A stretch of 64,000 nucleotides of DNA from Amoebophrya sp. A120 (GCA_905178155.1 CAJINV010000004.1:2741456-2805455), one strand, 5' to 3'; counted from the stretch's first letter, positions 10,555-63,300 are shown. Numbers and translations are program-made. Notes: generated from the sequence alone by a model not told the origin.

Positions 10555-11434
10555 TCACCGTCCCGCTTTCTCAAGATTGCTCACTTCCGCTTCAAACGCT
10601 TCCCGCATCCCGGTCACGGTAGCAGTTAGCTCCTGCGCCTGATTGCGCATACTTCGCATTTCATCAAGAATCGCCTCCCCTGCGACGTTATGAACTGCAA
10701 AAGGAAAAGTCTCGTACTCGTATAACTGCATTACAAATTTCCTCAGCATGAGAAGTAAAATTTGTATATGCGAATTTACCTTAAAGAAAAGATTTGCAAT
10801 GCATGATTGCAATACGAGTGCGATACTTTTGCACAGGATAGACATCCTGCTTCTCCTCCGCGGTCGGTGGCGGGCTAGCACCGCCGCCCGCGGCCGTTGC
10901 AGAGCCTGCTGCATCTCCTTTTTCACTATCGGCGAATGAGGTGCTTTTGTTGCCTTTCTTGGCGGGACGATCAACAGATGAAGATGCTGCACAAGTAGTT
11001 GATGTCCTCTTCATCACCCCGCGACCAGCGCCAGTTCTCCGCGTAGAAGATTGCTCGTCTACGATCACCGGCGGTGCGTACAGAGAAACCCCTCGTTTCC
11101 TGTTCTCCCGGAATTTTTCCAGAGCCTTTGCGGACTGCAAACTCGCGTATCCCGCGTGCTTGGCTGCGTCGTCGGCAAACATGCGCCCGGGTCCGGGTTT
11201 CTGCAGCCCTGCCGCGCGGGCGGCGTAGTAGGAGGCTTTATCCGAGTACTCCTTCCCCTGTTGCAGCAACGCTTCCGGCCCGGCAAGCCGGTGTCCGCAC
11301 GGACAAGCGGCGAGCACGGACGACTGTTTGGTGCGGAGTCCGAGCATAGCCTCGCTGATCTGCGCGGAAGCCTCACCAAGGGCGTCCAGAAAACTCGTTT
11401 TGTTGTGGGGGAGAGAAGGGAAGGAGGAAGACAT
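10555..11434 (-). CDS. Uncharacterised protein, 2 exons (one introner)
   Basis: ORF from 11434 joins the 10555 frame (...EKQDV|AGEAILDEMR...) when 10684-10840 is removed. Confidence 0.7.
10689..10840 (-). mobile_element. Introner, family A (152 bp)
   Basis: TAT..ATA ends, TGCAAAAG TIR, direct repeat gacgt/gacat. Confidence 0.9.
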
Positions 11435-12104
11435 TTTTGACGTTTTCTTTTTTGTGGACCACTTGGGAGATTAGATCAGAGCCGTCCGTGTGTAAATCTG
11501 CACTAAATGGGGCAGGAGCTCGAGCTCGATTGATGAACTGGAAAAATGTACAAGATAAACATCCACATGGACGATGTTACCAGTTGGAAGAGGAAAGCCG
11601 AATGCGTTACCCGAAATTTTTATTTTAGTCTTCAAAGATTGAGCCACAGACGCGAAAATCACAATTCCTTGCTTTTTTTACGACTGAAATGCCATGCTCC
11701 GCTACAACACTGCTATCACACGAATGCGATTTTTACGAAGGAGCGGCCACTGCTCAACAAGCGATTGCGATTCACCGTCAGCTTCTTCCATTGTTATGTA
11801 TTGTGAAAATTATCGAAGCTTCAATCAACAGCAACAGGGCGAGCGAATCGATAATACGAGAAGAAACAGAACCGAAAATAACACCATGACGAGTGCGCTA
11901 CTTTCATTTATGCTGAAGATGTGTGTCCTCGTCCAATAAGTTCTTTCTGACCATTATTTTGATGCTGTCAAGTTGAATTCCATCTAGCGACAACGCTTGC
12001 CCTCCATCGCGAAAATGCGTAGTCTGGATTGTTTCCTGCTCCCGATCCATCGTAGAATCGTAGCGAACTACGGAACAACCAAATGATCGCAAATCTTCGC
12101 ATGA

Positions 12105-12701
12105 TCACAAATCAAACGACTCTTTGCCCCTGGTCGTCGCCCGCGCGGCCCGCAGAGCGCGGTCGCGGGCAAATTTCGAGTGTGCAAAGGCGTTTTCCAC
12201 GTTGGTCTGCAGTTTTGCGGCCCCCGGAACGCCCTGCACCTTCACCATCGCCGCCTGATTCAGCGTGCTGGCCTTGTCGTTCAGTCGCGCTGCCTCGAGC
12301 AGCAGGTCCTTCGGGGTCGACACAGTTTTCAAGCCCCGGCCGAAACAGCTGCTGAAAACCGGTAGCGACCCGAGCGTCGTGGAGAGAAAGGTCTCGATTT
12401 GGCTGGGAAACGAAAACGCGCTGGTTTTTAGTCGGTTGGAAAGGCCGGCTTCGGAGATGAGCACTGAGTTGTGGCTTTCGCCGATAGAAGAGGACGCTGT
12501 GTCGTCCGCAAGAATTCTACTCGAGGAAGCACATGATGAGGAGGAGCCAGATGTTGATGAAAACGTTCCTTTCACTCTTGCCGTTAAAACCGCATCGGTA
12601 TGATCCGCCGGAAAGAAGGCTCTTGCGAAGAAGGACGAAGATGCCGTCGAACCTCCTGTCATCGAAGCACCAACGGCGGCGTTGGCGCTGCTAGACACCA
12701 T
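12105..12701 (-). CDS. Uncharacterised protein, possible paralog of 10555-11434
   Basis: Intronless ORF; the C-terminal segment P..LL......DKAS....PG....AL...RG resembles the neighbouring gene. Confidence 0.6.
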   Translation of the reverse strand: MVSSSANAAVGASMTGGSTASSSFFARAFFPADHTDAVLTARVKGTFSSTSGSSSSCASSSRILADDTASSSIGESHNSVLISEAGLSNRLKTSAFSFPSQIETFLSTTLGSLPVFSSCFGRGLKTVSTPKDLLLEAARLNDKASTLNQAAMVKVQGVPGAAKLQTNVENAFAHSKFARDRALRAARATTRGKESFDL

Positions 12702-13083
12702 GATCTTGGTTTTGCGTTTCTCAAGAAGGTAGATTTCAACAAGAACAACGCAGACAATTTTGATAAAGTAAACGCGTTCTTTCGTTTGGCTAGAAGTACC
12801 AAGAGTCTTCTCCAGAAACACCAATGCTGCTGGCTCGGATCATGTTGATTCAGCTTCTGAAAAGAACGAACGGCATCATCGATGTGCGAAATTGATGGGT
12901 TCTATTGCTCGAGCTCGACTTTTCTTGTCGACCGTTCACGAAATGAGACAACGAGTTCTGCAGTCGACTCGAAATTCCCGTCGCGAGTCCTGACAGAACT
13001 TCATAAAATGCGTGAAACACGAAGAAGAAGAAGAACAGGTCCGATGGGTACTTGATTCTATTGCCATGAAACAAAAACTTCCA

Positions 13084-14796: not shown

Positions 14797-17700
14797 TTAT
14801 TTCCTGGAGAGCAAAACCCCGTTTTCGATGTGGGGCGTGAAGGGAAAGTGGTCCAGCACCGCCCACTCCGAAACGGAGTGCGTCCCTGCCAACACGTCCA
14901 GATCCCGCCGCAAGCTGCTGGGCGAGCAGGAGATGTAGAGAATTTTGTCGAACTGGGAAACGAATTTCAAAGTAGTCTTGTCGACGCGAGTTTTCCTTTT
15001 CTCCCCCTGTTTCCCGTTGCTGGACGCGTGCTGCAGACCCTCCCTCGGCGGGTCCACGAGCACCCAGGAATCGTCCGCCTTTATGGAAGCGTCAGGATTG
15101 AAATCGTCAAAGTTGAAATAATTTCTCATGCATAAATTGCAAGACATGAAGTGCCTCTCTTGCAGGGATGGCAAGTGAGGCAGATTGTGAGCCTATTTAG
15201 GGTTTGGGATAGAGCTGCTAAAGTAGCATGACAAAAGCAGTCTTCTGTGCCCAAACAGCATGACAAACTGGATTCAAGTGCTCCGAAAATTTGTCATGCG
15301 CCGCTTGGAAATTGGGCTTTCAAGAACTGGTATCGACTTTATGCATTGCAAGTTGTTTCAACTTTGTCGATTTCAATCCTGACACTCCCATAGCCTTCGC
15401 GCGCGCAATCACGGCTTCGTTTTTCTGGAACTCCTTGCAGGCCTTCTGACTCGGCGCGAGAATCGCGTGGATTTGAGTTCTACAACTACTTCCTGTTGGT
15501 TTTGCTATTTCTGGAGAACCGGCCACCAACCCGTTTAGCTGAATATTCCTTTCCAGCATCTGCACTAGGTTCGCATCGATCTCAACCGCGTGAATCTCGT
15601 CGAAGAGGTCACTGAGCGCGATCGTGTGACTCCCAATACCGCAGTACAGCTCCAAGAGGGAAGTTGTCCTCGTCGGGGAGGACGTGATAGAAGTGTTCTG
15701 TTGTCTGCTGATGTGGTTGCTCTCCTGCTCCGGCAACCAACATTTCTTGTACTTCTTCACCATGGCCCGGAGCCACTGCGCCGTGCTGATCTGAATCCAG
15801 GGGTTTGGGTTACTGAAGGAATTGAACACCAGAGCGTAGTGGATTTCGAAGAAGTTTTTGCTCTTTTTCATACCCCTTGCGGTCGTGGTGGCCTGGAGGT
15901 CGCCGTCGTGTACACTTTTGCTATAATTCGCGTGGTCCTCAAACTCAAATCCCATCGAGTGCTTGTTCATCATCGTCTTCGCCTTACAACTCGTTTTATT
16001 CTCGATCTGCAGTGACTCCCGCAACGTTACCTTTGCCGCCAGCCTCCGGCAGGTTTCCGCGGTTGTCGCCCAAGAGATTTGCGCTGGACTCTGTTTCTTC
16101 CCCGATTTTTTTAGCACAATCAGCCGATCCTTGGTGGAAAAGAGGAAGGTGCGTGTGACAGTAGTAGTGTCGGGATGGGAAGAAGGAGGGAGCACTTCTC
16201 CTCCGGGATGTTCTTGTCGTTCTTTTCGTTCATCTGGAGCTGCGCCGTCAACTAGTAGAGCCGCCTTTTTAGCAGAATTTGTCGTCGAATAAGTGGGCAC
16301 CTCCGAACGGCGCTGTTCAAAATCGTATGCGGATCTTTCGAAAAACAACTCGTGGAGGAATGGAGCCAATTCCTCCGGAGAATCAAAGGAGAGGTTTTGT
16401 TTCTGTTCTTCAGCTTCAACAGCGAAGTTGTCAGCCTTATTTCCTGGTGCAGGTGCTTGTGGTCGTGTGGAAACAGCACAGGGGGCGGTGGCTGTGCAAA
16501 TGTTGGCTGCAGGGGGAGCTCCGCCGCCTCCCGCGTTTTCCGCATCACCGAGGTCGTCCGAAGTTGGAACAAAGCCTTTGCCGCGGTCTACTTCACAGCT
16601 GGGGTCGATCTTTTTCCCATTTAATTCGAGGTGGACTCGTGCTCGTCCGTTATTTTCATCTTGTTCGGCTTGTTTATTATTATTTCCAGCTGAATGCTGC
16701 TCCGGAAGACGAAGAACATCCTTAAGCAGCAGCGGACGAGAACCACGATCACCAGAGCCAGTACCTGTCGAACTTGCGCACACCTCCAGCTTGTTCCCGT
16801 CGAATAGAAACTGGCAAACCATGTCAAGCCCCGTCGTCACCGTGTGCAGCTGCATGCCCGTGAAGGCCTCGCCGCGGAAATTGTGCAACAAACAGCGGAC
16901 TTGCGTGTTTAAAAAGAAGCTGTCGTCGCAGACGACTTGCAGCCCCTTCGCCAAGCTCGTAATAGACATCCGCTCCGGGACGGTCTCGCGAATGACGATT
17001 TCTGACAGAACGTCGTTCGCGTTCTTCTTTACCTTGCACGACACCGGAGCAGGAGCAGGCGATGAAAAATTATTTTTGTTCATGCACTTCAGCACAGGCT
17101 CGGCGTCGAACAATATGAAATGCAACTTGGACAACTTCAGGATCTCAGCGATTGTTTCCGAAACGACCTGCGTTGTAGTATCGCGATCCACGTTCTTCTT
17201 GTTTTGTTCCTCGCCCTGGTGGTCCTCTCGATGTTCATCAGCTTCGTCGACGTCGTTGTAGTTTCTTGTAGTTGTAGAAGAACAATGCTCACCGTTCTTC
17301 TTCCCTTGTTTGGTGCTCCGTTCCGCCAGCTCGTCCTCCCACTTCCTCATTTCGCACTCGACCTTCCGACGCCCGATGAAATTTCGGTTATAAACGTGGA
17401 AAAACCACACGAGAGGGAGTTTCAGGAAATGATCAGGAGCGCCGGGCGGGGGAGGACCACTAGTGGTAGTGCCGCAGCTTGGGGGGTCAGAAGGTGACGC
17501 TGACGTTTTCGAAGTGGTAGGAGCACTACTTCTTCCACCCGCGCCGGTGCTTGAGCTGGGAGAATCATCACCACACCCACACGAAGCTGCGCTATTCGTT
17601 TCTGCTTTTTCCCCTCTGACTACCGCGTCCGCGACCTCCACTGCAGGAGAACAACTTTGTTTTTGAGAAAATAACCCACCCGACGACGACGACATCCGCC

Positions 17701-18560
17701 ACAGCTCCACCACTTTCCGCACAAAACTGACTTTCACCACTGAAATTCTGGTCCGGAACCGAAACTGCTGGTCTGGCGACCGGAACAGGGACAGGGTTTG
17801 CCTTTTCTTGCATTCTGCCGCCTCAGGGAAATAGTCTTCGACAAAAGAAGTTTTTTTTCCAAACTCAAACTCGTAGGAAGTCAGGGTCGGGGGCGAGAAG
17901 TGTATGGGGTTCTCAAACGTTACATTCTCAACTGTTACATAAATTTGTCATGCAAAAGCACCATCATCACCCACGCGACCAAGCTGCTTCGCATGACAAG
18001 TTTACCTAGGGCTAAACAGCACCTAAATCTGTGTGGAACTTGTAATGCTACAGGCGCAATCTCCCCTCTTTCACTTTTCTCATTCTTGCATCACAAATCC
18101 ATGTAACAGTTGAGAATGTAACAGTTGAGAACGCCATAAAGTGGTCGCTGAGGTTGTGAGGAGTAGATTTTTGCGATGTACTAGTACACAAGGATATTTT
18201 ATTTACGTCGAGACCTTCCGCGCCAGAGCTGCTCGTCGTCCCACCACAATGATCACGGTTGGTTTGACTGGGCGATGTTGCGTTATGATACTTGATTTCG
18301 ACCGCCCCCGCAGACGTTTGATGGTGACTTTGTCCGTCGTACACAGTATGGTTATTTTTCACAGGCGTAGTCCCGGCAGAAGAAGATGACGCAGCTGGTG
18401 CCCCACCAGCGTCGGTGGACCTTGTTCTTGATCGATTGGAAAATAAATCTTCCGTTTCCAACCCGGGGACGATGCCGTGCTGCTTGGCGCTGCTTGTCTT
18501 CATCGTAGTTGACGTAACAGGCCTGCGGATAGATGGATCATGGGTCGTCGGGGGCGGCAT
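14797..18560 (-). CDS. trmA: TrmA-like tRNA (uracil-5-)-methyltransferase, 3 exons, with long low-complexity insertions
   Basis: Motifs LFRSPDQQFRFR, SFSNPN, LLELYCGIGSHTIAL, VDPPREG, KILYISCSP, DHFPFTPHIENGVLL. Frames join after removing introners 17903-18138 and 15082-15392, each plus 5 bp. Confidence 0.88.
15082..15392. mobile_element. Introner, family D (311 bp)
   Basis: TIR TATGGAAGCGTCAGGATTGAAATCGTCAAAGTTGAAA; perfect direct repeat gcctt. Confidence 0.92.
17903..18138. mobile_element. Introner, family C (236 bp)
   Basis: TIR TATGG.GTTCTCAA..GTTACATTCTCAACTGTTACA; perfect direct repeat aagtg; related to 45053-45294. Confidence 0.92.
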
Positions 18561-19556: not shown

Positions 19557-22500
19557 CTATCCCCTCCCCCGGCCCCAGAGTCCGCCGAGCGCGCCCCCGA
19601 TTTTATTCAATGCGCCCTTGATCTTGCCCTGTTTTTTCGGCAGAAACTCTTCCAAGTTGGGGCCGGGCAGCTCGAGCTCCGCAAGGTCGTTGATGATGGG
19701 CGGCAGGTGGAGCAACTCCAGTGGCACATTGGGAAAGACCGTGCCGGGGAGCTGGTTATTCGCAGTAGAAGACAGAAGCGGCGCAGCACTTGACTGTCCG
19801 GACGTTGCCCCGGGCTCATCCAGCGCTCCGGGTACCGACAGAACCATACTACGTGCGTGCCACCTGGGAAATTTTGTGTTTGTAGACATCTGGATATGGA
19901 AATGGATTAGAAGAAGACATTGAATCATTCATCCTTTCTTGACTTGAACCAAATTCGCAACATCATGACCGCGTAGTTCAGAAACGAGCTACGTCGCGAT
20001 TTTATAAATCCAAAAAAAAAGAGATGAACAAAGTAGACTAAGATAAATACGCCATGGCTCTGTTCGGGAGGTCACTACGCAGTGTATTGAGAATTTTTGT
20101 CGCTTGCTGGAAGGGTTCCGGGAGCGTCAGTGGCTCTTCCGTTTGCTGCATCTCCATGCGGCCGCGTATGAGCTCCAAAATACCCGACGCCTCTGCGTAC
20201 TTGCCGCAACAGAGGTAGCAGAGCGCTGTTGTGAAATTTCGAAGAAGGTAGGAACGAATGATGAAGAGAATGAAAAGTGAAAAAGTTGCAATATGTAGTC
20301 GTTGATATTATTGTGAAGTACAACAGGAGGAAGACCCATAGAAATGTTGGATGCCTGCTGCTTTCCATCATACCCAACGACATCGACATCAACATGCGAA
20401 TGAACAAGATAAAGATTCTTCCAAATGCAAACTTCCAATACTTTTGTACCAACAAAAAAGCCGCGTAGGTTCATCAAAAGGTTTTCGACGTCTGCCAGAC
20501 CGTCTTCCAGCTCTTCGCTTTCCAATTTTCCGAATTGCGACTTAATCAGCTCCGCAAACCGCACGCCCTCTTCCGGCCGTGCCCCCTTGGCGCCGAGCTG
20601 CTCGATGGAGGAAAGACCGTCTATTTTCGCACCAAGCCGTTCCAGGAAAAGCAAGTCGCGTTCTGGGAAATGATTTGAGGTTGTATTTTCGATACACAGC
20701 AAGTTTTTGACAAGAACGAATAGTGCTTCTAAAAATGACGGCACTTCTAGGTTGGGAAATCATGAATGTGGTGTGGTGGTTCTAGTAAAAAGCGATCGTG
20801 CTTCTTAAGAAGTAGAAAACAATTTTCTAATTATATTCTTTAGTATCCTTTATCAATACCGACACAGATGGCCGTGAGCTGTTCGCGGCACATTTTTTCC
20901 AAAGCGGCCACCTTATCCCCTTTCCGGAGCATCTCTTCATGGATACTTGCCAAGGCGTCCTGCATCAAATTGACGCCCTCCGCGTAAATTTGCTCCACGG
21001 CGCTCTGCGTTGTTATACTGCTGGCGTTCATTTTCCCCCCAGCACTGGTGCTCGAACTACTTGCGCCGCTGGTGGTTGTTGTCGTGCTAGAAGTCGCTAG
21101 CACTTTCCCCCTATGAACTGCAAAAGTATCGCACTCGTATAAATGCATGACAAATTCCCTCAGCATGAGAGACAAAATTTGCAATGCGGATTTACCTTGA
21201 GAAAAAGATTTGTAATGCATGATTGCAATACGAGTACGATACTTGCACACAGGATACCCTCGGGCTTTTTCCACCGCTGCGAAGGCCAAGTCGAGCTTTT
21301 CCTTCGTCTGCCCCGACGTGCAGTCGATTTTTTGGCCGCGAAAGGAGTAGGTCTCGACGATTTCTTCCATTTCCACGTCGTCGACCTTGGTGATGCTCGA
21401 GGACGTGCTCTGCTTGCTCGCTTCCTGGTTCAGCACCCCCGCGTTGTGCTTGCAGCGCTTCAGCAGCGGGTCGACTTCTTCCACCATGGTTTTGTACAAA
21501 TCCGGGTCTTTGGAAGCGGCAGCCAGACGCTCGTACGCGGAACGGCACCTGATATGGAGTTATTGATGGGGGGTCGTTTGCTACCGAAGATATCACGACC
21601 ATCACAAATAGGATGGGAAAAACAATTAGCTTTTACTCACGATCATGCAACAAGTCGTAGTTGTGTACAGACGATGAAACACTACTATATTCGCTGGCGC
21701 GTTGCGGCCCAACAAAAACAATAAACCAAGCAGTTTAATAGCTCTCGAAGTACTTTTCGAGCATTTTCGCCGCCGCCGCGAAGTTTTCCTGTTCCATGAG
21801 CAGTAGTGAGTCCATGTAGAATTGGTAGGCCTCCGTTTCCCTTTATGGATTGCAAAAGTATTGTACTGGTATAAATTGCATCACAATTTTTTTCAAGAAG
21901 AAAAATGGAATTTGTAATGCTGATTTACCTCTAAAAGGGATATTTGTCATGCATGATAGCAATTACTACGAGTACGATACTTTTGCACAGGATACCCTTT
22001 GCGTTCGCAGGTCGCAGGTGTGGAGCGAAAATTTGTGCAGCACCTTGGCACAGGAACTAGCTTTTCTTAGCTTGCGCACGCTGTGCTGCTTGCTGGCACT
22101 GGAGAAGGCCGCGCGCACCGCATTGTCCCCCTTCAATTGTTGGAAAAAGGACCAATTGCGCTCCGTCTGTACCAGGAGAATTTCCAGGTCCTGCTCACAT
22201 TTGATCTCCAGGATGGGCGTCTCCTTCTTCCAGCGGCCCTTGCCTGGAAAATTAATTAAATATTGTGGGGAAACGAGATTAGGAACATTTACAATCATCC
22301 TGCTGCAAGATTCCTGAATGCATTGCTTAGATTCAGGAGATTTTTGCATGGTTTCGAATGATATTTCATAATAAATAAGTTCGTAATTTGCATCTCTATA
22401 CCGTGCCCGCGTTTCGCGGCTTTGTATAGGCGCTGGAGTCGTCGGGTGCAGTATTGGCGATACCGATAGTGATCGTTGTGGCGCAGGCCGTTGGCGTCTT

Positions 22501-23855: not shown

Positions 23856-26800
23856 TTACATACCGTGATTCGCGACGACACGGACCACGTGGAACCGGGA
23901 CAGGAGATCCATATCCGGCGTATCGCAGCTCGAGAGCAGGATGAATTTAAAGTTCTTCGTCTCCAGCGCGAACTCGTATTTCTGAAACTCGGTGCCATCC
24001 AGCTGGGGGTCGACCAGTAAATCGTACAGCAGGTCCTCCTGCGTGAACAGTCGTTTGCTCAGCACCAGTATCCACTGCAAAGGTATCGTACTACTCGTAG
24101 TAATTGCAGTGACGGCGCATGACACATCTCCGATCTTAGGCAAATCAGCATTACAAATTCTACTTTTCTTCTTGCTCTTGGCATGTATTTGTCTTGCTAT
24201 TTCTACTAGTACGATACTTTTGCAATGCATAACCAGATTCAAAATGCCCTCCTGTCGCAAGATCCGGGCCGCTTCGAGTTTCCCGCTGTTCGCTTCGTCG
24301 CCCGCGGCTATGCATTACAAAAATGTCTGGGCCTGGAAGATTGCTGAGGTTTGTGATGCTGCGTCTGCTTGACACGGAAGGTGTGCCATGCAAGGCCTAG
24401 CATCACACCAGGTTTAGAGACGGTTTCCCAATGCTCAATCCGCATGACAAATGCCTTCTTTCGGCGACGGGAAAAGGAGCTCCCTTTGCTGTCTAAGCAT
24501 GACAGATTTTTGTGTGATCCAAGTATGCATCACAAGTTCGCGCATCCTTCCAGACCCAGACATTTTTGCATTTCATAGCGGCCGCGCCGAGGCCAAACGT
24601 GGCACCGCTCTTGGAGATGTCGTTCATCGATTTGTCGATCACGCTGGACAGCGCATGCAGGGTCCCGTCCGGGTTTTTGTCCAGAAGTGAGGACGTGGAA
24701 GTTGTACTAGCCTCTCCTCCCGTTGTAGTTCCTGTACTGGTAGAAGTTGCGCTCATCAAACTGCTCCCCCCGACGCCGAGGGCGGATCCCCCGGTCGACC
24801 GGGCTCGGGGGGGCAACAAGGACTCCAGGCAGATGGCCAAGTGGTCCGCACCGATGGGGGCGCCCATGCAATCGAGGACAAACGGGACGTCGTGGCGGAC
24901 GCAGTTGAGGAGGGCGCGACGCATGTTTTTCGTATCCGACACGTTCCACATCTTCAGCAGTGTGGCGCCACTGTATGAGAGTGCACAACTTCCCTCTCAT
25001 TTGTCCTGCAAAATCGCAAATCCAGTCGCTTCCTTGTGCCTGTGGCACTGCTTGCATGACAAATTTCGAAAGCCAAAACAGTACTACAGTAGGTACATAA
25101 ATTTGTAATGCACAAGCCCCAGGGTCGCTGGCGTTTGTATTGCTGTTCGTGCAAAAATACAAATGAGGGGGAGGGGGAGTTGGGCACTGTCATACGCTGT
25201 ACTCGAAAAACACACTCGCACGGCCCGAACTGTCCCAGACGAGGGGGAATTTCTGGTCTTTTGTGATGGCGTGGGGGCCGGACGAGCGCAGGACCGCGTC
25301 GGAGAGAAGTTTGAAGGGAAGGATGTATCAACTGCAAATATGTCTGAGTCTGGACACTTGTGATGCTAGTTTGTGAATGGTGGGCGCATGTCAATATGCA
25401 GCCACGCATAACAAGTTTTTGAGCTCCTGTCTGTTTCGCACTGCATATTTGCCTGACAGGGAAGAGCCTTTTTTCCTGCTCAGGCATTACAGATTTAAGA
25501 GTCATCGGAGACAAGCATGACAAACTTGCTTTGTTCCAGACCCAGACATATTTGCAATGCATAGGATGGTCAAGTTTGCGATTTTTGAGTTTTTTCGCTC
25601 GCTGCTATTTGGGTCCAGCTCGGCTTCGGCTTCTTCGTACCTGTGAGGAGAGATGACAAGCAGCTGTAGGTGGGATAGTATTCTTTTTGGAAGTGATCGT
25701 GATGTCATTCTCACTTCTATGTATGTATTGATGACCGCACCCCTGTCAAAATGCCCAAGCTTATTGCTTTTCTGCATCGAGCTTGAGCTTGGCACGTTTT
25801 GGTCCAATTAATCCAATGAATTTGCTACAATCGTGGACCCAGAAGGAGAAGCTGCAACATGCGAGAATTCGGGGAAACTTGTCTTGTGTCTGTTGTGATG
25901 CACTTTGTATATCACGTACGTTTTTGTTTCCTGACTGCACGACCTGCAGAACTAGTGTACATTTATAGCAGTTGTAGCAAATGAAAATCATACTTGAGCT
26001 TCAGCTCTTCCACCCGGTGCACGGCGTCTTCGAGTTTTCGTTTCAAGAGCGAAAGTTGTGACGCCATTTCCCTTATGTATGTCTCTTCCTCTTGCGCGGA
26101 GATAGCACTACCCGCTTGATTACTATTGCCGCCCGACTCAGGATTTGAAGACGCGTTTTGAAAATTTGCCTGCGCCATGCGTTTGACGATCTTGTCGGAC
26201 CAGGAGCGGTACGCGTCTGCGGCGTCGCGTTTGGCGTTCTCCAGTTCTATTTCCTCTTGTTCTATCTGTTGCTTCAATTTGTCCAGTTGCGCATCCGCGT
26301 GCTTCTTGGACAGTTGGCCCAGCTTTTTTCTCCCCTGCTCCAGCTTCGCCTGGAGCTGCTCTTTCAGTTGCTGTGTCTTTTCCGGCGTTTTGGCCCACTC
26401 CTGCAGCAGGTTCTCGCACTTGCTGTCGTTCGGTGCGACGGTGAGCGGGGTTTGAAACGAAGTGTCGTAGATGGCCGGATCCGCGCCTGATTCCAGCAAC
26501 ATTTCCACCACCACCGCGTTCCCGGCGAACGCGGCCCGCCACAGCGCCGTCCGCTGGAACTCGCCCTTCGCGTTGGGGTTCGCGCCGAAATCCAGCAGCA
26601 TCTGCACGATGTCCGGGTTGCCCCCGTTGGCCGCGGCGGAAAGCGGCGCATACCCGTCGCTGTCTTTCGCCTCGAGCAGCAGCACCGGGTCCTGCTCCAG
26701 CATCTTTTTCGCACTCTCAAACTCCCCGTCGTAGCAGGCGTCAAAGAAGTCGGTCTTCTTCTTCGCCACCTCCTTTTTCTTCCGCATTTCCTCCACCTTT

Positions 26801-42429: not shown

Positions 42430-42578
42430 TATGAGTTGCAAAAGTATCGCACTCGTATAAATGCATTACAAATTTAGCATGAGAAATAAAATTTGTAATG
42501 CAGATTTGCCTTGGGCGATAGATTTGTTGTAAATGCAAGACTTGCATTTATACGAGTACGATACTTTTGCACAGGATA
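42430..42578 (-). mobile_element. Introner, family A (149 bp)
   Basis: TAT..ATA ends; direct repeat aagtg/gagtg; close to 34489-34630 in sequence. Confidence 0.9.
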
Positions 42579-42639
42579 GAGTGGGATTCCCCCGCCGCCG
42601 CAACCAAAAGCCCTTTCCGTCGTATCACGCGTGACAAGG

Positions 42640-44093: not shown

Positions 44094-44518
44094 GTGCTGT
44101 AGTTGCACAGCAGTTTTAGCAATAGGACTTACTAGCTTGTGATCTCAATCCAGTAACTAACTCTACCTTGCATCTCGTCTGCATGTGACAAGCTGAGACG
44201 AACAAGACAACGCGGCTTACAGTTAGAACTACATGCAGATGGAGTAGACGTGGACCACGTGCACTCGCTTTTAATAGGGACTCATGCGAAACCTCCATCT
44301 GCTGGGTAGAGCAATGACGGAGTGGATCTTTTCACGCAGGATAGGTCGCCCTTATACCACATTTGGTCGTCCACTTGTCCCGTGTCAGACTGTCGGTTGT
44401 CGCTGTCGAAAGGAGCTGTGCAGCATTGAGGTGGAACTACAATTTTTTCTGATCGTGAAATGCGTATGACGAAAACAACTTTTCTAGTAGCTACAGCAAC
44501 ACAAACAAAGTAAAGAAG

Positions 44519-47838: not shown

Positions 47839-47969
47839 GATGGCGCTGCGGATTATCCTCCGACCGGTGCTGCTTGAGGCGAGGAACAAAAAGTTCTTGT
47901 AGAAGGATTGTGCAGCAGGAGTAGTCCACGACCTCGCGGGTGGTGGTGGTCCCAACAAGCCCTATTGGT

Positions 47970-48621
47970 GGACATAGGCAGGATCATCCCCCCAAGGATC
48001 ACCCCCCTCAAGATGCAGGGGGGGTTAGGGGGGCCAGGGGGTGGGCCGGGGGCAGGAAGGTAGGGGGCAACGAGCGAGGCCGGGGGCAGGCAGCCAGGCT
48101 ACGGGGGGGGACAAGGGCAGGCGGGCCGGCGGCAGGCAGACCGGGGGCAGGGCGGGGCGGCGTTGGTATTTGCTGGAAGGCCTTCCCAGAGGTTTCCTGG
48201 GCCAAGATGTGCTACAGGCGGGCAGCCACCCGAGGAAGCCCGGGAGCGCCTAGCGCCTCGCCCCCTGAGGCAACAAAGGCGGCACAGTGAGCGAGCCCCC
48301 CCGGGCGGGGTCACGGCAAACCAACGAAGGGGGAAAGGGGGGGCAAAGAACAGAGAGGGGCGCGAGGGCGGCAAGGCCGGCGGCGCGTGCCTCCGGCCCG
48401 GAACAGGAAGGGGCAAAGGGGAATCGTCTGGGCCAGCCGTCGCGACGGCGCCGTCGCGACGGCTGGCCCAGACGACACCGCCGAAACCCTAAACCCTAAA
48501 CCCTAGCCCAAACCTAAACCCTATGCCCTTTAGGGGGGTGATCTTGGAAACTTGAGGGGGGTGATCTTGGAAACTTGAGGGGGGTGATCTTACCTTGAGG
48601 GGGATGATCCGGCCTACGTCC
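47970..48621. mobile_element. Non-autonomous TIR DNA transposon (652 bp) with 9-bp TSD
   Basis: TIR GGAC(A/G)TAGGC(A/C)GGATCATCCCCC; TSD cctattggt at 47961-47969 and 48622-48630; subterminal ggggggtgatcttggaaacttga repeats; internal CCCTAAA repeats at ~48484-48522. Confidence 0.9.
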
Positions 48622-49941: not shown

Positions 49942-52900
49942 CTAGTACTTGACCAACGGAACGCCCACCTCCTCGCGATCCTGCACCCGCCGAGCGATCT
50001 CGCGCAGCTCGTCGGGGACCGGCTGGCCGGCCTTTTCCAGCACCTGGATCAGATGAGCAGCATAGGCGGTTTGCAGGAAAAAAACTGCTTCACCCTGCTG
50101 AATTTTCGTGCTATTGCTTTCGAGGGAATTATACAAACATGACCAGTCGTGGTCGTGGCACTAGGACACTACTTTCGAAAAAGAACAGATGCAACACAGA
50201 GCCAGCGACAGGCACAATACAATTTGGATTTGCACAACACCTGCTGCATGAAGCCTGCTTCCCCGTGCACGGGGGCAGGAAAGACGCGCCACAGAATTGG
50301 GTCGTTTTATGCTGGAAGCCCACAGAGCATCATCTTTATCAAAATTTAAAACTTCTCTTCACTATGAAGCAGTTTTTTTCCTTTGCATAGTCCGGGTAGT
50401 TGGGCCAGTGCTATCAAGTGTAAAAGTGTCTGGGTCTGGAAGATTGCCAGGTTTGTCATGCACATTTTGCATGACTCCTGATGTCTGTGATGCGTGCCCT
50501 AGCGCCACAGATTTTGTGAGGGCTTCCTGATGCCTATACCGCATGACAAATGCTCTGTCCGTGTAGCAAAACTTGGACTCTCTTTGCTGCTCATGCAATA
50601 CAGATTTTTTTACAATCCAAAATCAGCATGACAAGTTGGATTCTTCCAGACCCAGACATTTTTACAGTTGATAAGTACTCAAAGATCGCGATTGACGACG
50701 CCTTGGTTACCACCTCCCTGGTATAAAATTGCAAAAGTATCGCATAATTACAGCTATGCATGACAAATTGCCTTCCTTTTCCTACGGCTCTGCCTCTGCT
50801 ATAACAGCATGACAAATTCCATGATCTGTCCACACTCTTTAGCTAATTTGTATATGCAATTCAAACTAGTAACGATGTTTTTGCGCAGGATAACTGCCCC
50901 GTGCGGTTCGCCCGACACGATGCACGTAGTCTTCGAGCGAAGAAAAGTCGTAAATGAAGACGTGGGAAATGTCCGGAATGTCGAGACCGCGCCCAATCAC
51001 GTCGGTTGCCACCAAAAGCCGGATCCAGCCACGCCTGTAACATCAATTCAGTGGATTTATTCTTTTTTCCGGAACTACATGACAAACTGGTGCACGGATA
51101 ATCTAGATTATTGGAGGAGGACAAAGCTGTTGTGAAAGCACTCCTCTTTGCTGCCTTCGGAACATTCGGTACAACTTAAGTATCAACATTCTTACCGAAA
51201 AGATTCGATCGTGCCGGTGCGTTTATCCTGTCGCTTCCCACCGTGCAACGGTATGCTCTAAAAATCACGAGTTGATGAATTTGCATAAAAATCCCATTCC
51301 CAACAAGAATAACCAAACTTTGCCTTTCAAATTTTTTGAGTCATGATGATGCCTTTAAACTAGAAGAAAGATCTCCGCTCCAAGTCCAACGTCATCTTGC
51401 CATCACTACGTACTGAGTGGGAACAATATGCAAGTCGTTCTGCGAGCTTGCTAGTCACGACACACTATCACGACTTACATGACTTTGGTTTATGGACATA
51501 GACTTCGACATGCCGTAAAAAACGCAGATAAAAAGAGGACAAGCGTGAGGCAATTACATCATCTCATCAATTATCCGAAATCAACATTTTTCTGTTTCGT
51601 AAATGCAGCTGCCTCGTTGAAGCCCACGTTCCAGAGGTCACTGCACAAGTTGTCCGCCGTCACTTCTTATGCATTGCAAAAGCATCTTCGCACTGCAGTT
51701 CTGCATGACAAAAGTATCTTCGCACTGCAGGTCTGCATGACAAAAGTATCTTCGCACTGCAGTTCGTATAAATTGCAGTCCTGCATGACAAACTCCAGTT
51801 TTTCTTCTTGAGAAAGTTATTTGTCATGCGCTTTATACTAGAACTGGTACGGTACTTTTGCGGAATGCATATTTTTTCCGCGACGAAAATGAGGACCTTT
51901 ACGCCCTCGGGAAAGGACCGATTGGCGTTTTTCTCGTAGGCGGTTGTACTAGAATTGGAGTCAGTGGTTGCGATTGGGATGTTGTATAAGGCTTGTTCCT
52001 GCTCCTCTTCATTCTTTCTCCCCTGCTGGTCCTCTGTCGTCAACGTCGTGTAGAAGTTACTTGCACCTCCTTCATCGCACCGGCCATCGTTTTCCAGGAG
52101 GGCACCGCTGTTCGTGGAATTGGACACCTTCAGGTCCCGACAAGAAATATGCAATGGAACAATTTTTGATGCGTGCTACCACGCGTTAGAAGAAGTCCTC
52201 CTCGCACTTTCTTACTTTAGACTTTCCTAATTAGAAATCCACATTGAAGAACAAGATGAGCTCGGAAAGTAAGTTGTAGATCAACTTCCACTATACGTTC
52301 TAAGTAAAGTGCCAGTAGTACTGGCGTGTCAGTTCTCTATACAGAAAGATCTTGACAAGTTTTCTGAAGATCATGCACCGCTGCAGATGGTAGTACTTAC
52401 TCCCGCTTTCATTGATGCAGCTTCACGAAACTTTACCTTGTACTAGTGCTTGTGCTGAGGACTTGGCATGATCACCAACACAATTTTATTTTTCCTTCGG
52501 GATAATCCAGCAGTTCGGACAGAAAATCGTAAAGTAGCTTTTTCTTCAGTGTCTGCGCTGCAGCATAATCCAGTGACGGGTCCACCACGATCACCTTCTG
52601 GTCAATCTCCGGTCGGACGGTGAGAGTGCAAGAACCGGAAAAAGAAGTATCGTGTCCCTCATGTCCCTCAAGGGCAGACGAGCCGGCTCCTGTCGTGTTG
52701 GAGGCAGCATTGATCCTCGTTGAACCGTTATACAAGAAAAAAACTGTGTAAGCGTAAATCTCTGATGCGGAAAAAGCAAAACAGTTACACTTCTTGCGCT
52801 TGTCATGCTCGACATGCATGAGCATGATCGGCTCGTTTCCTATGTGTATGTTTTTTCCCTTCCTAACTGCGCATAACAAGTTTTTCCTATCATTGCAGAC

Positions 52901-55273
52901 AAACTTGTGATGCTGTTTTCCCAAAAGATTTACACTAACGCAGTTTTTTTCTTGGATAACCGTGAAGGTCCTGTTCGACCTCCAAAATCAGCTTCCGCTC
53001 GTTTTCCGCGAGTTCAAAGGCGACTTTTTGCACGGTCGCGTCCCACGTAGCCGTGAAAAAGTAGGTGATGCGCTTCCGTGGCGGTAGAGGACCTTCTGCT
53101 CGTCCGGGTTGCATTTTCATCGCCCGCGCGAGCTCTTCGACGACACCTCCAAACCCCTCGTCGAGCATGCGGTCCGCTTCGTCCATATCAAACAAAAAAG
53201 CGCTAACGTAAACGGTCCGTTTACGTTTAGATTTTATTTTTAGAGATTGCAGCTATGCATGACAAATTTTGCCTAGAATGCATGCTATGCAACACCAATT
53301 CCGATTCCGGGGCCATTTCTGATGCATTACTGCATCACAAATTTTTCCGGTAACCTTAGCACTTTTTCCTGTGATAGTCCAGGACCAAAATGCCGAAGTT
53401 CCGGCTCAGGTCGAGTTTTCCATCCTCGACGAAGTCCCTCAATCTGCCCGGCGTTCCGACCACGAGACGCGCAGCACAAAGGTACGGCTCCTGGTATTTG
53501 CGCCCCTGGCCGCCGTAGCAGCATACCGAGCAGATTTTTCGGCAAAAGGTCAACTTCTCAAACTCCTTGTGGATCTGGTCTGCGAGCTCCCGGACGGGAG
53601 CGAGAACTAGTGCGCGCAGCTCCAGGCCCTGCGCCTCTGCGGCCTCGAGTTGAATGATGGTGGCTACGAGGAACGCGAGGGTTTTGCCGCTGCCCGTGCG
53701 CGCGACACCGATAATGTCGATCGGGGCGTTGAAGGTCAAGGCGTCATTTGTTACCGTAGAAGAAGCCCCCATAATTCTTGTCGCGCCCTCGTCTGTAGTT
53801 CCAGGAGCTGCACGAAGTATGGAAATATCAGAACAACACGTTGAACTAGGCGTTTTCGCAAAGAGGTGTTGGACCGCCGGGGCCAGGAAGTATTTCTGGA
53901 TCTTCATCGGTCGCGTCCACTTGTACCAGTCGAGATTGTCGAGGACGTAGCCTTATGCATTGCAAAAGTATAAGTGTCGTAGTCGTACTCGTGAATCTGA
54001 ATTGCACTAGAAATTGCCTTAGCATGACAGATTAAATCTGTATAGGCGGATTTTCCTTAAGAAAGAGATTTGCAATGCACGCACGCAATTAGTACGAGTA
54101 CGATACCACTTTTCCAGTGGATAAGCCTGGAATCAAATTTTCCGTCAAGTCGTCCCGGAAACTGTCAAAAACAAACACGCTGTTGACGCCGTTTTCCGCA
54201 GCTGGAGGACCAGAGTCATTTCTGTCCTTCCCAGATGAGGATGACACGTGCTCCAAAACGATGGGCGCAGCTGCAGCAGAGACCGTCGACGAATCAGTTT
54301 CGATTTTTGTCGACAGGAGAAACTGGATCTGGATCCGGTCTGTTTCCAGCTCCTCCAGGGTGGCGAGTTTTCCAAACGAAGTCACCTCCTGCGGGTTGAA
54401 GCGGAAACCAGATTTTTTGTACTCCGTCCAACTTCCGGCTTCGTCTTTCACCCACGTGTTGCCTTCTTTGTCGACGACTGTGCTGCTGGTGACCGGGTTT
54501 TTGGTGAAAGACGCTGCGTTTTGTTGATTCCACGAACGAGTCGTGTAGTAGGTTGCGTTGTCTTCACCGGTCGTGGAATAGTTCTTGCTGTCCTCGTCTT
54601 CTCTGATGTTTCTGTAGTAGTTGTTTTTCCTGTCGTACGGGACGTCATTGCCGCGACCTCCACCAAAACTCCGGTAGTTCGAGGTTGTAGAAGCATGATC
54701 GTAGCTGTTGTATTTCGCTCGCCAATCTTCCGGGGCCTTCGCGGCCGTCGAAGCAGCGTCGTCGTAGTTTTCAGCCTTGTAATAGCGTGTGCTGTAGTTT
54801 CGATTTTGTTTCTGCCAGATCGTAGTAGACGATGAGTAGGACGAAAAGTCGCTTTTGTGGAGGTCGTGCGAAGGTGCTTTTCCGTCCCACTCACCGTCGC
54901 CTCGCCAATTGCCGGCACTTCCACCTTCGGGGTTGCCTCTGTCGTCGCGGTAGTTGGAATGCTGCGTGTTTCTATAGTTGTACCAGTCTCCGCTCTGTCG
55001 TCCAGTGGAGTCGCTGTAATTTTTGTCCCAAGAGGAGGCCCAACTTGACGACCCCGAGTTGGCAGCCCGCTGGTCGTGGGAAGTCGACGTGGGAAGTCGT
55101 TTATCGTTATAATTATTTTCCCTCTTCCCCCAGGGATCGTTGTTCTTGTAGTCCTGCTGCGTATCTAGCACGTGCTCACTAATAGGACCGGCCACGGTGG
55201 CTGCCGGTTCGTGCCCATGTGTCGAACTGGGCAGGGACGTACCATTAGTTGTATCGCCGTACGCTTCTGTCAT
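49942..55273 (-). CDS. DEAD-box RNA helicase (Dbp2/Dbp3-like), multi-exon
   Basis: Q-motif [86 protein letters not shown]. Confidence 0.92.
50412..50673. mobile_element. Introner, family E (262 bp)
   Basis: Direct repeat agtgc/agtac; TGTCTGGGTCTGGAAG TIR. Confidence 0.9.
50722..50892. mobile_element. Introner, diverged family A-like (171 bp)
   Basis: TAT..ATA ends; direct repeat cctgg/actgc (3 of 5); frame restored. Confidence 0.8.
51668..51871. mobile_element. Introner with internal tandem repeat (204 bp)
   Basis: TATGCATT..AATGCATA ends; about three copies of tcttcgcactgcag.tctgcatgacaaaagta; direct repeat 3 of 5. Confidence 0.82.
52729..52958. mobile_element. Introner, family G (230 bp)
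   Basis: TIR TAT.CAAGAAAAAAACTG.GT.AG.GTAAATCT; perfect direct repeat accgt. Confidence 0.92.
53186..53376. mobile_element. Introner (191 bp) splitting the DEAD motif
   Basis: Perfect direct repeat gtcca; TATCA..AAAAAG.GCTAA TIR. Confidence 0.92.
53954..54123. mobile_element. Introner, family A-like (170 bp)
   Basis: Perfect direct repeat agcct; removal gives [11 protein letters not shown]. Confidence 0.9.
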
Positions 55274-58156: not shown

Positions 58157-58318
58157 TTTTTTGATTTGTCTTGCTAATCACGGCCGAGCTCTTTGATTTG
58201 GGTGGACCTCAACGAAGGTCCACCTCGAAAGCAAAACGAGCGAAAGTATTTGTCGCTCGCGCCGCCGTGGAGGGGGCACAAGCACAATGGCGCGGAATGT
58301 TCTACATAATTACACTAA

Positions 58319-58339
58319 GAGAGAGAGAGAGAGAGAGAG
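58319..58339. repeat. (AG)n microsatellite
   Basis: Directly visible run of about 10 units. Confidence 0.9.
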
Positions 58340-60632: not shown

Positions 60633-60860
60633 CTAAAACCAGCAAAGTGGAAGACTTACCACACTGCCGAATACCGGACTCGCTTTCTCTACATATGCCG
60701 TAGCTTGTCCGTCACTCCCGATCACGGCCTGCTGGTCCAGCCCGGGCTTGGCCTGTTCGTCAGTAAACTCGGTCTCGACGGGGGGGACTAACCCATAAAC
60801 CGCTGTCGCAGCAAGGACCCCGGCAGAGCGCACCAGCTTCTTCAGGATTCCGAACGCCAT
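60633..60860 (-). CDS. First exon of a putative secreted protein
   Basis: MAFGILKKLVRSAGVLAATAVYG is signal-like and followed by an acidic segment; downstream exons not found. Confidence 0.4.
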   Translation of the reverse strand: MAFGILKKLVRSAGVLAATAVYGLVPPVETEFTDEQAKPGLDQQAVIGSDGQATAYVEKASPVFGSVVSLPLCWF

Positions 60861-62199
60861 TCTGGTGGGTGTTGTCTTTGTGGGTCTTTCTATTTCTTTC
60901 TACAAAAGACGAAGTAATGGAAGAGTACAAGGACGGAGCGGGCTGATGCAATCTAGTATGTAAAAGTCCTTGCCGCGGTACTTAGTTCGTGATTGCGTTG
61001 CTGGCCGCGTACTTTTGGTTTTGCGCCTCTAGAACATGCAAGCTGTACAATTATACCGTTTTAGTACTTCGCTCGCGCTTTCGCTCAGATGATGCGCAAC
61101 AGGCCAGCGCTATGAGTTCGAGCATGGTTATTCCCTAAAGAGATACATCTTTCACTCAACTGCTTTGCCTTTGCTTGGTCCTATATGCAGTTGGCCCTCA
61201 TCACGCAGAAACACGCTCGGGCGGCTCGTTGTGCTTCTTCTGTCTTTTCTACTATTCTGTTGTCAGCGCTACTCTATGCCAGCACGTCGCTTTTCCTTTT
61301 GTTCGTTTTCCTCGTATAAATTGGAATTGCTTCTTCAGCTTGCTTCAAGAAGCATTTTGTAAACGCTGGCCATAAGTACGCGTATTAATACGTTGGCGAA
61401 ATCTAGTACGTGCCCCACGCTCAAGCAGATGACTGACAAGATTCTCATCCGCACTTACTTTCTTGCGCCGAGCATCGCCCTAGTCGTCCTGCTTTCTAGT
61501 TTGTACTATATGCTCCTTGTCTGAGAAGTTGTGCTTCTCGCTGCAGAAGAAAAATCCGACCATGTTTTATCCGGTTTTGGTTCCCCAGAGCGAAGTTGCT
61601 GAGTTAAATTTACAACTTTTTGACGAACACCACGCGGCCGCCTTCATCCGATTGCCAAGAAGTATTCAAGAGACCAGACGAGAAAGCTAAATCTACATCT
61701 TCAGGTTCACTTGATGCAGCAGACACTGGTCCATTTCCCGTTGGTCCGTCTTATTCGGGGTTCTCGAGGCGGTTAAAATCATGTAAGAGCCTCGCGTCTG
61801 TGCAACGCTATTGGTAAGCAAGCTTTGAGCTGCTACAGATTCTCTCATATTCCCGTTTCTGCTATACGTGTTTCATCTCCGCAGGAGCTCCTTTGGGGAC
61901 ATGTACACAGTCCAGATCTACTCCAGTCGGTGGACGGATGGTCGAGTCGAAGTTTCAATGCTGCCCAAGAGCCCCGTGGATCGAGTCCAACTTTGCCGCC
62001 AGCTGTTCGCGTTCGGTAGTATGGAGAGGAAAAATTCTTATCCTAAACACGTAGTAGCTCCTCAAGTTCGTCGTGCTTTCATGAAAAGCCGCGAAGGGAA
62101 AACAAATCCGCTTCTGCTTTTGTTTTCTGGTGCTGGTCCTTTGTGCTGCATGACAAGTTGTGATCTATCATCGCACTGCTAGGCGAAGGATAAGATTTG

Positions 62200-63300
62200 T
62201 CTTCTTTTCCGTAACTGCCCAGAGCCGCGCACTCGCTCTTGAGGACTTCCACGAATCGCATACGGTAACCTGGATTTATCTTTTGTGTTTCTCATTCCCT
62301 TTCCAGTGATTCTCCCTCCGCGGCTGATCCTTATCGGTTTTTTCGTCTGAATGTGAATCATAGAAAGTGAAAGATATAATAATGACCGATGCACCAGGTG
62401 GAAGTGGTTCTGCTTCTGCGTCAGATGCAAGCACGTTAATTCAACACTTTTATTCTCTTCCCCACATGTTGGTGTTGAAACGACATCATATTCAAAAGCG
62501 AAAAATACAGTCTCTGGACAGCGGCCAGTCCCACGCTCTGCGGTTCCGCCGGAAGATCGGCCGCTGGTTCGTGATCGCGGTAGCCTCCTCCAGGTTTTGC
62601 GGAATCTTTCCCTTCCCGGCTTCCCCGGCGGCATCAGCACCCAAGTAGTCCTTCTGTGTCGCAAGTAGCAGGTCGAGACATTCCTGGACGGGAAGAGGAA
62701 GTGGAAAGAAAACAACATCAAAGCCAATGAATAAAACTTTAATATCATTTTCCAGGGCGCGGGCGCCTCAGTGTACTACGTAAATTCGCCCCTGGTCGCA
62801 TTTCAATAAGAACAATAGCCAGATGAACCTACTGCATGTAGACACGACTGTAGTTCGTTCCGCTGTGGACTCATCAAGTCCTCGAAAGCGACAACCACTA
62901 GCACTTCCGCTATCTTCAAATGTTTTCTTTTTTTTTTTTGATTCATCCTCTTTCATAGCGACCCCTTCCTCTGGATCTCTGCGTCCACGGCGTCCACCCA
63001 CTGCTGCTGTCCGGACGATATGCACTGCAAAAGTCTTATCGCACAACTCGACGAAATTTTCAAATCAATCATAGTGGCAGTATTTGTATTGCATGAAAAA
63101 TCTGGTTCTGGAGGTACTAATTCAGAATGACAAATTCTACTCGTGACCACGCTGAGCAAATTTGTCATCATGCAGTCACGCACTAGAAGAAGCAAGTAGG
63201 ATACTTATACTTTTGCACAGGATAGAAGACCAAACGCGCGACCCAACCTTGACGCTCTTCACGAGTTGACCTGGTTTTGAGACGGAAACTGAGTGCTTTC
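62200..63300 (-). CDS. Fragmentary multi-exon gene, unknown product (approximate bounds)
   Basis: Exon-like GC-rich blocks, one joined across introner 63019-63224 (GWVARLVF|VRTAAVG). Confidence 0.35.
63019..63224 (-). mobile_element. Introner, family A-like (206 bp)
   Basis: TGCAAAAG TIR; direct repeat gacga/gaaga. Confidence 0.88.

Follow-up and report, generated by a model that had tools for sequence, protein, structure and literature searches.

Introners built like small transposons are already described from this organism. According to the available text of Farhat et al. 2021 (PMC7789003), the introners of Amoebophrya sp. A120 are MITE-like, belong to many families, lack GT-AG ends and are supported by RNA; their inverted repeats start with TAT, seven further nucleotides and at least three A, and their direct repeats measure 3-5 nt (5 bp in the legend of Fig. 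S19). In the same text, splice sites are variable, 1-5 nt from the hairpin, with no clear dinucleotide signature; in Table S4 T stands at +2 in all nine of the top A120 motifs listed, while their 3' ends vary, and all nine A25 motifs start with TT, which fits the TTA repeat of A25. Non-canonical introns exceed 60% in these genomes, the A120 spliceosome is near-complete, with U1 snRNA not detected, and the splicing mechanism is stated, in the parts of that paper available, to be open. Gozashti et al. 2025 (PMC12130899, supplementary file 8) classify one A120 family, family 38, as Ginger-like, with 5-bp duplications and TA termini, but without homology to known Gingers and their termini.

The elements in the window analyzed here, a stretch of 64,000 nucleotides, are these known A120 introners, and their class and grammar are already published. 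All five features compared are present: the host, non-GT-AG introns supported by RNA, TAT arms, direct repeats, and repeated families without an internal transposase. The preliminary description of this DNA had made the connection, and it matches Farhat 2021; since elements and grammar were both in print, the finding as it was worded there is not a discovery. What differs from the variable sites of PMC7789003, as far as its available text goes, is the proposal of a single register, with one base removed before the element and four after it, U and A at intron positions +2 and +3, and a conserved A at -7. The cut register of A120 introners was not found in print, and the accessible part of a review on dinoflagellate RNA-binding proteins contains nothing on this mechanism.

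Three other systems offer partial parallels. The nonconventional introns of Euglena (Nomura et al. 2025, PMC12501133) also carry paired motifs at their ends, set at constant but unequal spacings from the two cuts, are likely of MITE origin and coexist with GT-AG introns; they are argued to be non-spliceosomal, the code being paired motifs at fixed spacers. The Euglena signature is N3CDG / CH'GN5-6 followed by a purine, whereas here the spacers are 1 and 4, the motif is TA(T)/A(TA), and the exon start has no purine bias. Spliceosomal introns of Giardia, Trichomonas and Spironucleus (PMC6679479) keep a fixed distance from the branch A to the 3' splice site, as is proposed here, and base pairing shortens their long introns, which we liken to the elements here; but GT-AG and a long branch consensus persist in them, and neither is present in the introns here. 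In Fritillaria borealis (PMC11282704, available part), MITE-derived introns with TIR and TSD are removed by an adapted U2 spliceosome, the ends AG-AC/AG-AT being favored along with a particular target; here, by comparison, neither the target nor the two terminal dinucleotides are constrained, apart from T at +2.

The grammar is that of a transposon. The preliminary description had listed 28 elements of 142-311 bp that begin with TAT, end with ATA and carry TIRs, with 17 perfect flanking repeats, nine matching at 4/5 and two at 3/5; elements and tally were all verified. Scanning for TAT...ATA pairs with similar arms and a repeat that agrees at 3/5 or better returned 29 matches: 27 of these elements and two low-scoring pairs (23739-24216 and 55897-56491) judged to be chance. 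The remaining element, 10689-10840, has a gapped arm and was identified by eye. At an arm score of at least 22 there were 22 matches against one in total across 20 block-wise dinucleotide shuffles; at 16 or above, 29 stood against 0-5 in each shuffle. By sequence, the 30 short elements of the window fall into 14 clusters, so that the claim of at least seven families stands; the largest cluster holds 168 of 356 elements. The end logo has TAT, seven variable nucleotides and an A run (A fraction 0.84-0.94 at positions 11-14), a pattern partly required by the metagenome search criteria but with which the window arms agree.

The duplication is uniformly 5 bp across families, the only length that fits, as the preliminary description had it: of 350 further elements that were located independently of the repeat, 253 have a perfect one, and the mean match is 0.92 at 5 bp against 0.23-0.31 at 2-4 and 6-9 bp. 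Element orientation stands at 42:44, and both orientations are spliced; the repeat bases have no GT, AG or G preference among 207-222 oriented elements. The 5-bp duplication and TA termini are those of family 38, and a Ginger-like transposase of the integrase type, provided in trans, may well have carried out the insertion. Unlike family 38, the window copies are non-coding and 142-357 bp long, and no integrase was found among the ORFs scanned. The single mobilizing enzyme supposed earlier stays hypothetical: Pfam gave no match for eight ORFs from four of six long candidates in 562 kb (L029 and L059, which overlap several short elements, were left out of the ORF scan), a viral collection gave no match, and the Ginger-like link is one row of a published table.

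All elements listed here are assigned to the minus strand. Several interrupt recognizable genes: a TrmA-like gene by 15082..15392 (311 bp, repeat 5/5) and 17903..18138 (236 bp, 5/5; of the same family as 45053..45294 but in opposite orientation); SRP68 by 21112..21256 (145 bp, 4/5) and 21844..21994 (151 bp, 5/5); DCN1 by 38888..39084 (197 bp, 5/5) and 39367..39636 (270 bp, 3/5); and a helicase by, among others, 52729..52958 (230 bp, 5/5), 53186..53376 (191 bp, 5/5) and 53954..54123 (170 bp, 5/5). Elsewhere lie 10689..10840 (152 bp, 4/5, main family), 24069..24231 (163 bp, 5/5), 24309..24577 (269 bp, 5/5), 24974..25194 (221 bp, 4/5), 25326..25563 (238 bp, 5/5), 33195..33368 (174 bp, 5/5), 63019..63224 (206 bp, 4/5) and 33604..33749 (146 bp, 4/5), at whose right end, on that side only, an RNA piece starts. 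Pfam supports the TrmA, SRP68, DCN1 and DEAD helicase assignments in which the frame was said to be restored; the gene labeled 'zinc-finger' gave no Pfam match on the exons tried. Scripted excision yields long frames: 1076 aa over 15082 and 17903, 616 aa over seven elements and 762 aa over three. One exon of the helicase matches, at 100% identity, a protein that carries the name Amoebophrya sp. A120; annotated protein P0001 maps residue for residue, and P0121 does so except for one intron-split residue.

Removal of the element plus one repeat, as the preliminary description supposed, is seen in RNA-type contigs. The evidence consists of assembled contigs from one sample, their RNA status being the tool's guess; the gene models may not be independent of these runs. 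At 13 of 13 non-canonical joints listed, the skip equals the element plus 5 nt, the relation that had been put forward as a check, at identical coordinates in 4/4 runs; two GT-AG introns serve alongside as controls, and the skip at 34489 is additional. Full RNA skips cover 11 of the 28 elements described earlier: 34489..34630 (142 bp, repeat 5/5, contig skip 147 nt), 42430..42578 (149 bp, 4/5, 154 nt, 4/4 runs), 44670..44820 (151 bp, 5/5, 156 nt), 45053..45294 (242 bp, 5/5, 247 nt), 45353..45544 (192 bp, 4/5, 197 nt), 45627..45882 (256 bp, 5/5, 261 nt), 45955..46261 (307 bp, 5/5, 312 nt), 46609..46866 (258 bp, 4/5, 263 nt), 46930..47080 (151 bp, 5/5, 156 nt) and, in the helicase, 50412..50673 (262 bp, 4/5, 267 nt) and 51668..51871 (204 bp, 3/5, 209 nt). 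Two raw-read RNA runs, X7 and X9, gave 3 and 64 partial reads of repeat sequence, uninformative for junctions.

The earlier list proved incomplete: at least nine additional elements, several with degenerate ends, are backed by RNA or annotated proteins. RNA supports 42623..44343 (1721 bp, 4/5, skip 1726 nt), which contains a nested 1.4-kb insert between 34-bp direct repeats; 50722..50892 in the helicase (171 bp, 3/5, 176 nt); and the degenerate 51252..51601 (350 bp, 3/5, 355 nt), which has no predicted end pairing. At 50070..50389 (320 bp, 3/5, sense 3' end mutated) a skip of 325 nt was deduced from RNA piece ends together with P0001. Annotated proteins skip 216 nt at 36787..36997 (211 bp, 3/5), 160 nt at 37526..37680 (155 bp, 5/5, weak arms), 158 nt at 37195..37347 (153 bp, 2/5, sense 3' end mutated), and, among degenerate elements, 326 nt at 36315..36635 (321 bp, 2/5) and 362 nt at 52148..52504 (357 bp, 2/5).

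That the boundaries are not GT-AG, as first described, is confirmed: for none of 31 window elements can any cut within the repeat give GT-AG (GC-AG is possible for two and AT-AC for one). Where, then, does the cut fall? Imperfect repeats fix the register, counted as the number of left-repeat bases kept on the + strand. Five RNA joints (42430, 42623, 45353, 50722 and 51668) require a register of at least 1, and two RNA junctions, those of 50722 and 51668, are hybrids of both repeat copies. A register of at most 1 is set by 50070, where the ends of RNA pieces are combined with P0001, and by 52148 and 37195 (both 0-1, annotated proteins only); this bound comes from three degenerate elements with ends set by eye, two of them read on gene models alone. 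The degenerate element at 36315 allows registers 1-2 only. Under a uniform cut the joint chance of this agreement is 0.012 for the ten RNA constraints and 0.0004 for all 13. The cut thus very probably lies one base before and four bases after the element, giving N-TAT...ATA-NNNN as the sense-strand intron. G occupies repeat position 3 in 16 of 31 downstream copies, which first suggested a proto-splice-site bias with the cut behind base 3; this register is ruled out by the lack of G, GT or AG bias in the oriented elements and by three degenerate elements that exclude it. Codon scoring of 74 mismatches between repeat copies failed to reveal which copy is exonic; a seeming contradiction from a stop codon, at L078, reflected a wrong frame call.

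The 1+4 register places U and A at intron +2 and +3, as in canonical donors, and A at -7; the three canonical introns read all start with GTA. The GT...AG pair of U2-type introns is absent; under this register a GT start occurs in 6/31 and an AG end in 1/31 window elements. Conservation of the ends agrees with these positions. Among 24 elements at metagenome loci, the terminal TA has 13 breaks at the sense 3' end against two at the 5' end, and the third base has seven at the 5' end against two at the 3' end (Fisher p 0.003); no 5' end is broken at the U of +2 (0 vs 7). Mutated ends from a second search point the same way, with weaker support (3:7 and 5:1, Fisher p 0.05-0.12). There are exceptions: the second base is broken at the 5' end in two elements, and the A at -7, a rule noticed post hoc in the data and not predicted, is altered in two. 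We infer a relaxed donor, U+2/A+3, and a putative branch point, the -7 A, acting as a fixed ruler to the acceptor. The bases upstream of this A form no consistent branch consensus and are predicted to lie in or beside the stem. A shared internal motif, GCATNACAA, was considered as branch point and dropped, since it is about equally frequent on the two strands (340:338) and several introns confirmed by RNA lack it in the sense direction.

An unrelated insert follows the same code. The GC-rich TIR element at 47970..48621, a hairpin whose duplication measures 9 bp and which likely sits in a 5' UTR, leaves RNA at three different junctions, of 668, about 664 and 649 nt. All three open with N-TA and carry A at -7, where the local A fraction is 0.175; the two junctions read directly use no repeat, and the third was deduced from depth arithmetic.

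On balance, then, these are non-coding TIR transposon introners with 5-bp duplications, probably removed by a modified major spliceosome. The first cut would fall one base before the terminal TAT, the branch would form at the -7 A, counted from the 3' end, and the second cut would follow four bases after the terminal ATA, with AG unneeded; the inverted repeats may aid by bringing the ends together. As TAT...ATA is its own mirror image, both signals would be supplied in either orientation; and as 1 + 4 = 5 removes exactly one duplication, any insertion would become a clean intron. Group II introns have a six-domain ribozyme fold with a bulged A near the 3' end; the short length of the elements and their splicing in both orientations would argue against that identity. 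A wider version of the spliceosomal reading is more tentative, and we hold it a little below even chances: that the Amoebophrya spliceosome dropped both G+1 and the 3' AG, reads N|UA...A-N6| and measures the acceptor from the -7 A, so that any TAT...ATA insertion, and unrelated TA-closed hairpins too, would become introns in both strains (N-TA in A120, T-TA in A25).

The strongest competitor, possible though rather doubtful, is a non-spliceosomal endonuclease and ligase that would read the hairpin base and make a staggered 1/4 cut, leaving circles or linear products and no lariat. Such a pathway, proposed for the Euglena introns with their own paired motifs (PMC12501133), would account for the strong end pairing predicted in most elements, the indifference to GT, AG or G in the repeat bases, and the tolerance of the nested insert in 42623. 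Against this, no sense-strand selection on RNA pairing was detected, as G-U is not in excess over A-C (38:32), and 51252, with no predicted end pairing, is cut exactly in 4/4 runs; arm positions 4-7 are paired in only about half of the elements. Terminal pairs, moreover, are often broken, with the asymmetry expected of a U-A donor and a branch A. The earlier supposition that excision reads the paired ends therefore holds only in part: cutting is asymmetric, apparently guided by sequence at U+2, A+3 and A-7.

Reverse-transcriptase template switches across hairpins, with no splicing in the cell, are very improbable. Hairpins between direct repeats are the classic setting of this artefact (PMC4176328, available part), unspliced contigs do occur at 45955, 51252 and 50070, and the junctions of the GC-rich element, likely in UTR, are variable; but those read directly use no repeat, junctions are identical in four runs even at two shared bases or where no hairpin is predicted, and retention would break SRP68, DCN1 and the helicase, the element plus 5 being no multiple of three in 230/350 cases and stops closing two or more of the three sense frames in each of 31 window elements. 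Somatic or stage-specific DNA excision, as of ciliate internal eliminated sequences, with RNA copied from excised DNA, is more improbable still: the elements resemble cut-and-paste transposons, one duplication is removed exactly, and rare excised DNA may exist beyond the joints listed for the DNA-type run, but that run has a continuous 7864-bp contig over 34602-42465 with elements in place, and register and end conservation track the direction of transcription, not element orientation.

The worked-out register opens the spliceosomal mechanism to test: it predicts a lariat branched at -7, a U at +2 that never varies, and an acceptor without sequence constraint. If it is correct, it would explain how tens of thousands of insertions in coding exons are tolerated, would supply a rule for the correct placement of these intron boundaries, and would show the extent to which spliceosome recognition can relax.

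A scan of the window for TAT...ATA pairs, based on arm similarity and on matching 5-mers at the flanks, recovers 27 of the 28 elements of the preliminary description, together with two chance pairs; the 28th, at 10689-10840, is absent from the scan output. At an arm score of at least 22 there are 22 matches in the window, against one in total across 20 shuffles. The tally of direct repeats (17 perfect, nine at 4/5, two at 3/5) proves exact, and excision in script of an element plus one repeat rejoins the host frames, as had been claimed. Pfam backs the host labels TrmA, SRP68, DCN1 and, as a DEAD-box protein, helicase. All host frames of the elements, and every gene in the window that elements interrupt, lie on the minus strand, which agrees with reports of unidirectional gene clusters in Amoebophrya. 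The window has two N gaps (2584-3109 and 27714-28308). Towards the end of the DCN1 gene, 38608-38842 is an additional TAT...ATA candidate with recognisable arms and flanking 5-mers without a match; a GC-rich stretch with short repeats outside called genes (59280-60260) may be another inserted element.

Removal of the elements can be followed in the contig sets X1-X4, four runs of a single sample, presumed to be RNA and placed on 42300-52000. Among the 15 of 19 joints listed, two are canonical, being the two GT-AG introns that these contigs skip, and 13 skip exactly element + 5, with identical coordinates in all four runs. The proposed identity of intron length with element + 5 thus holds at 13/13 listed non-canonical joints, as it does for element 34489 (34489-34630) in X1. 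The 13 joints cover all 10 previously described elements of 42300-52000 and three missed ones, one of which is 1721 bp long with a nested 1.4-kb insert. Those 10 together with 34489 mean that 11 of the 28 elements are shown spliced; the annotated helicase supports removal of three more.

Where the two repeat copies are unequal, the base kept in the transcript tells which copy was retained, and the cut register can be counted as left-copy bases on the + strand. Five RNA joints demand a register of at least 1, other joints set upper limits of 2, 3 or 4, and at two junctions the retained repeat is a hybrid of the copies. RNA piece ends and the annotated protein P0001 limit element 50070 to at most 1, annotated proteins do so for 52148 and 37195, and 36315 allows 1-2; this upper bound comes from degenerate elements with ends set by eye, and from gene models perhaps not independent of the RNA runs. 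Register 1 alone meets all constraints and gives N-TAT...ATA-NNNN as the sense-strand intron. Under a uniform cut the joint probability of the constraints is 0.012 (10 RNA) or 0.0004 (all 13). We strongly infer a single register 1, deduced rather than read directly; the motifs listed in Table S4 of Farhat et al. fit it, with T at +2 in 9/9 for A120 and a TT start in 9/9 for A25.

With this register, U and A stand at intron +2/+3, and position -7 falls on the first A of ATA; the three canonical introns of the window start GTA, with the same U/A at +2/+3. The prediction was that the sense 5' end would seldom have a broken TA. In 24 elements with one mutated terminus, the terminal TA is broken 13 times at the sense 3' end versus twice at the 5' end, and the third base seven times at the 5' end versus twice at the 3' end (Fisher p 0.003). 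When only elements with unanimous strand calls are counted, the ratios are 11:2 for TA (3':5') and 6:1 for the third base (5':3'), p 0.004; the confident calls of a first pass stood at 9:1 and 7:1, and those of a variant with fewer neighbours excised at 7:3 and 5:1 (p 0.05-0.12). Four window elements noticed by eye agree with the asymmetry. The -7 A pattern was spotted post hoc and afterwards checked on an unrelated, imprecisely removed element, 47970-48621: each of its three junctions, one deduced from depth, opens with N-TA and carries an A at -7, and the element could be an RT artefact.

A 20-base end motif used as query has no match in viral contigs and finds 152 stretches in metagenome contigs. 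Analysis of 150 metagenome loci (562 kb), with the repeat not used as a filter, yields 350 elements, 253 with a perfect 5-bp repeat and 73 at 4/5; only a length of 5 bp fits. Length + 5 is even by frame (120:105:125); relative to transcription, the main family is found in either orientation (42:44), and RNA shows splicing of both; neither GT, AG nor G is favoured among the repeat bases. Most elements of the window and of these loci contain the motif GCAT[TGC]ACAA, which is common to most families and strand-symmetric, its commonest 7-mer being ~70-fold enriched over non-element DNA; it is likely a binding site of a common transposase.

The most likely account of these elements, which we hold to be somewhat better than an even bet, is insertion by a transposase acting in trans and removal by a modified major spliceosome. 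The transposase would make a 5-base stagger; the spliceosome would accept a relaxed N-UA donor and branch at the -7 A, and a fixed ruler from branch to acceptor would replace AG. No transposase was found in eight ORFs from four long candidates. Giardia and Trichomonas, in the available text of PMC6679479, have such a fixed branch-to-acceptor distance, but keep GT-AG.

The main rival, a hairpin-guided endonuclease with a ligase, is possible and distinctly less probable; such a mechanism is argued for Euglena in the accessible portion of PMC12501133. Of the earlier proposal that excision reads paired ends instead of GT-AG, the second half stands, as 0/31 elements give GT-AG at any cut position inside the repeat; pairing alone fails to explain the data, because arm positions 4-7 are paired in 12-17/31 elements, G-U is not favoured over A-C (38:32), and the cut is exact even in element 51252, for which no end pairing is predicted. 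RT template switching (PMC4176328, in the part available) is unlikely for the TAT elements, as is their excision from DNA; a continuous 7864-bp contig of the DNA-type run X5 has the elements still in place.

A GC-rich 1.4-kb insert (42640-44093) is nested in element 42623 between perfect 34-bp direct repeats, unusually long ones; four ORFs tried have no Pfam match, and the insert has no other match in the window or loci. The element at 47970-48621 is GC-rich, with TIRs, 23-bp subterminal repeats, a perfect 52-bp palindrome (48424-48475), telomere-like CCCTAAA repeats (48485-48529) and a 9-bp duplication, which we take to be of MULE-like length; locus L024 matches part of it. The element L022:6184-6998, of 815 bp, is flanked by a perfect 5-bp repeat and has arms as in window elements 17903 and 45053, and no Pfam domain in four ORFs; its length is near that of published family 38 (about 810 bp). 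L058:476-2934, of the 24309 family, carries ~2.2 kb of extra sequence, possibly a nested retroelement, whose 415-aa ORF (1511-2758, minus) has no Pfam match. Inside two different elements, L006:505-1608 and L040:3351-4498, lie sequences that resemble each other (87% over 543 bp), which suggests a second mobile element nesting inside introners.

One helicase exon matches a protein labelled Amoebophrya sp. A120 at 100% identity, and that protein fits the window once nine elements of the TAT type and a single canonical intron are removed. For A120, the available text of Farhat et al. 2021 (PMC7789003) gives repeats that start with TAT, continue with seven variable bases and then have three or more A, and direct repeats of 3-5 nt; it describes splice sites as variable relative to the hairpin, and reports a transposase as not found and U1 snRNA as not detected. 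Family 38 is given as Ginger, with a 5-bp TSD and TA/TA termini, among 38/58 A120 rows of supplementary file 8 of Gozashti et al. 2025 (PMC12130899). As these two papers describe its features, the element grammar is already in print; the suggested link to published Amoebophrya introners is borne out by the features in Farhat et al. and the exon identity, and the elements belong to a class that has already been described. No paper was found giving the register or branch position, part of which Fig. 3 and Figs S19-S23 of Farhat et al. could show; the word 'lariat' is absent from the main text of that paper, and a search combining Amoebophrya, branch point and lariat found no literature. The proposed splice code for these elements is the new and testable part.
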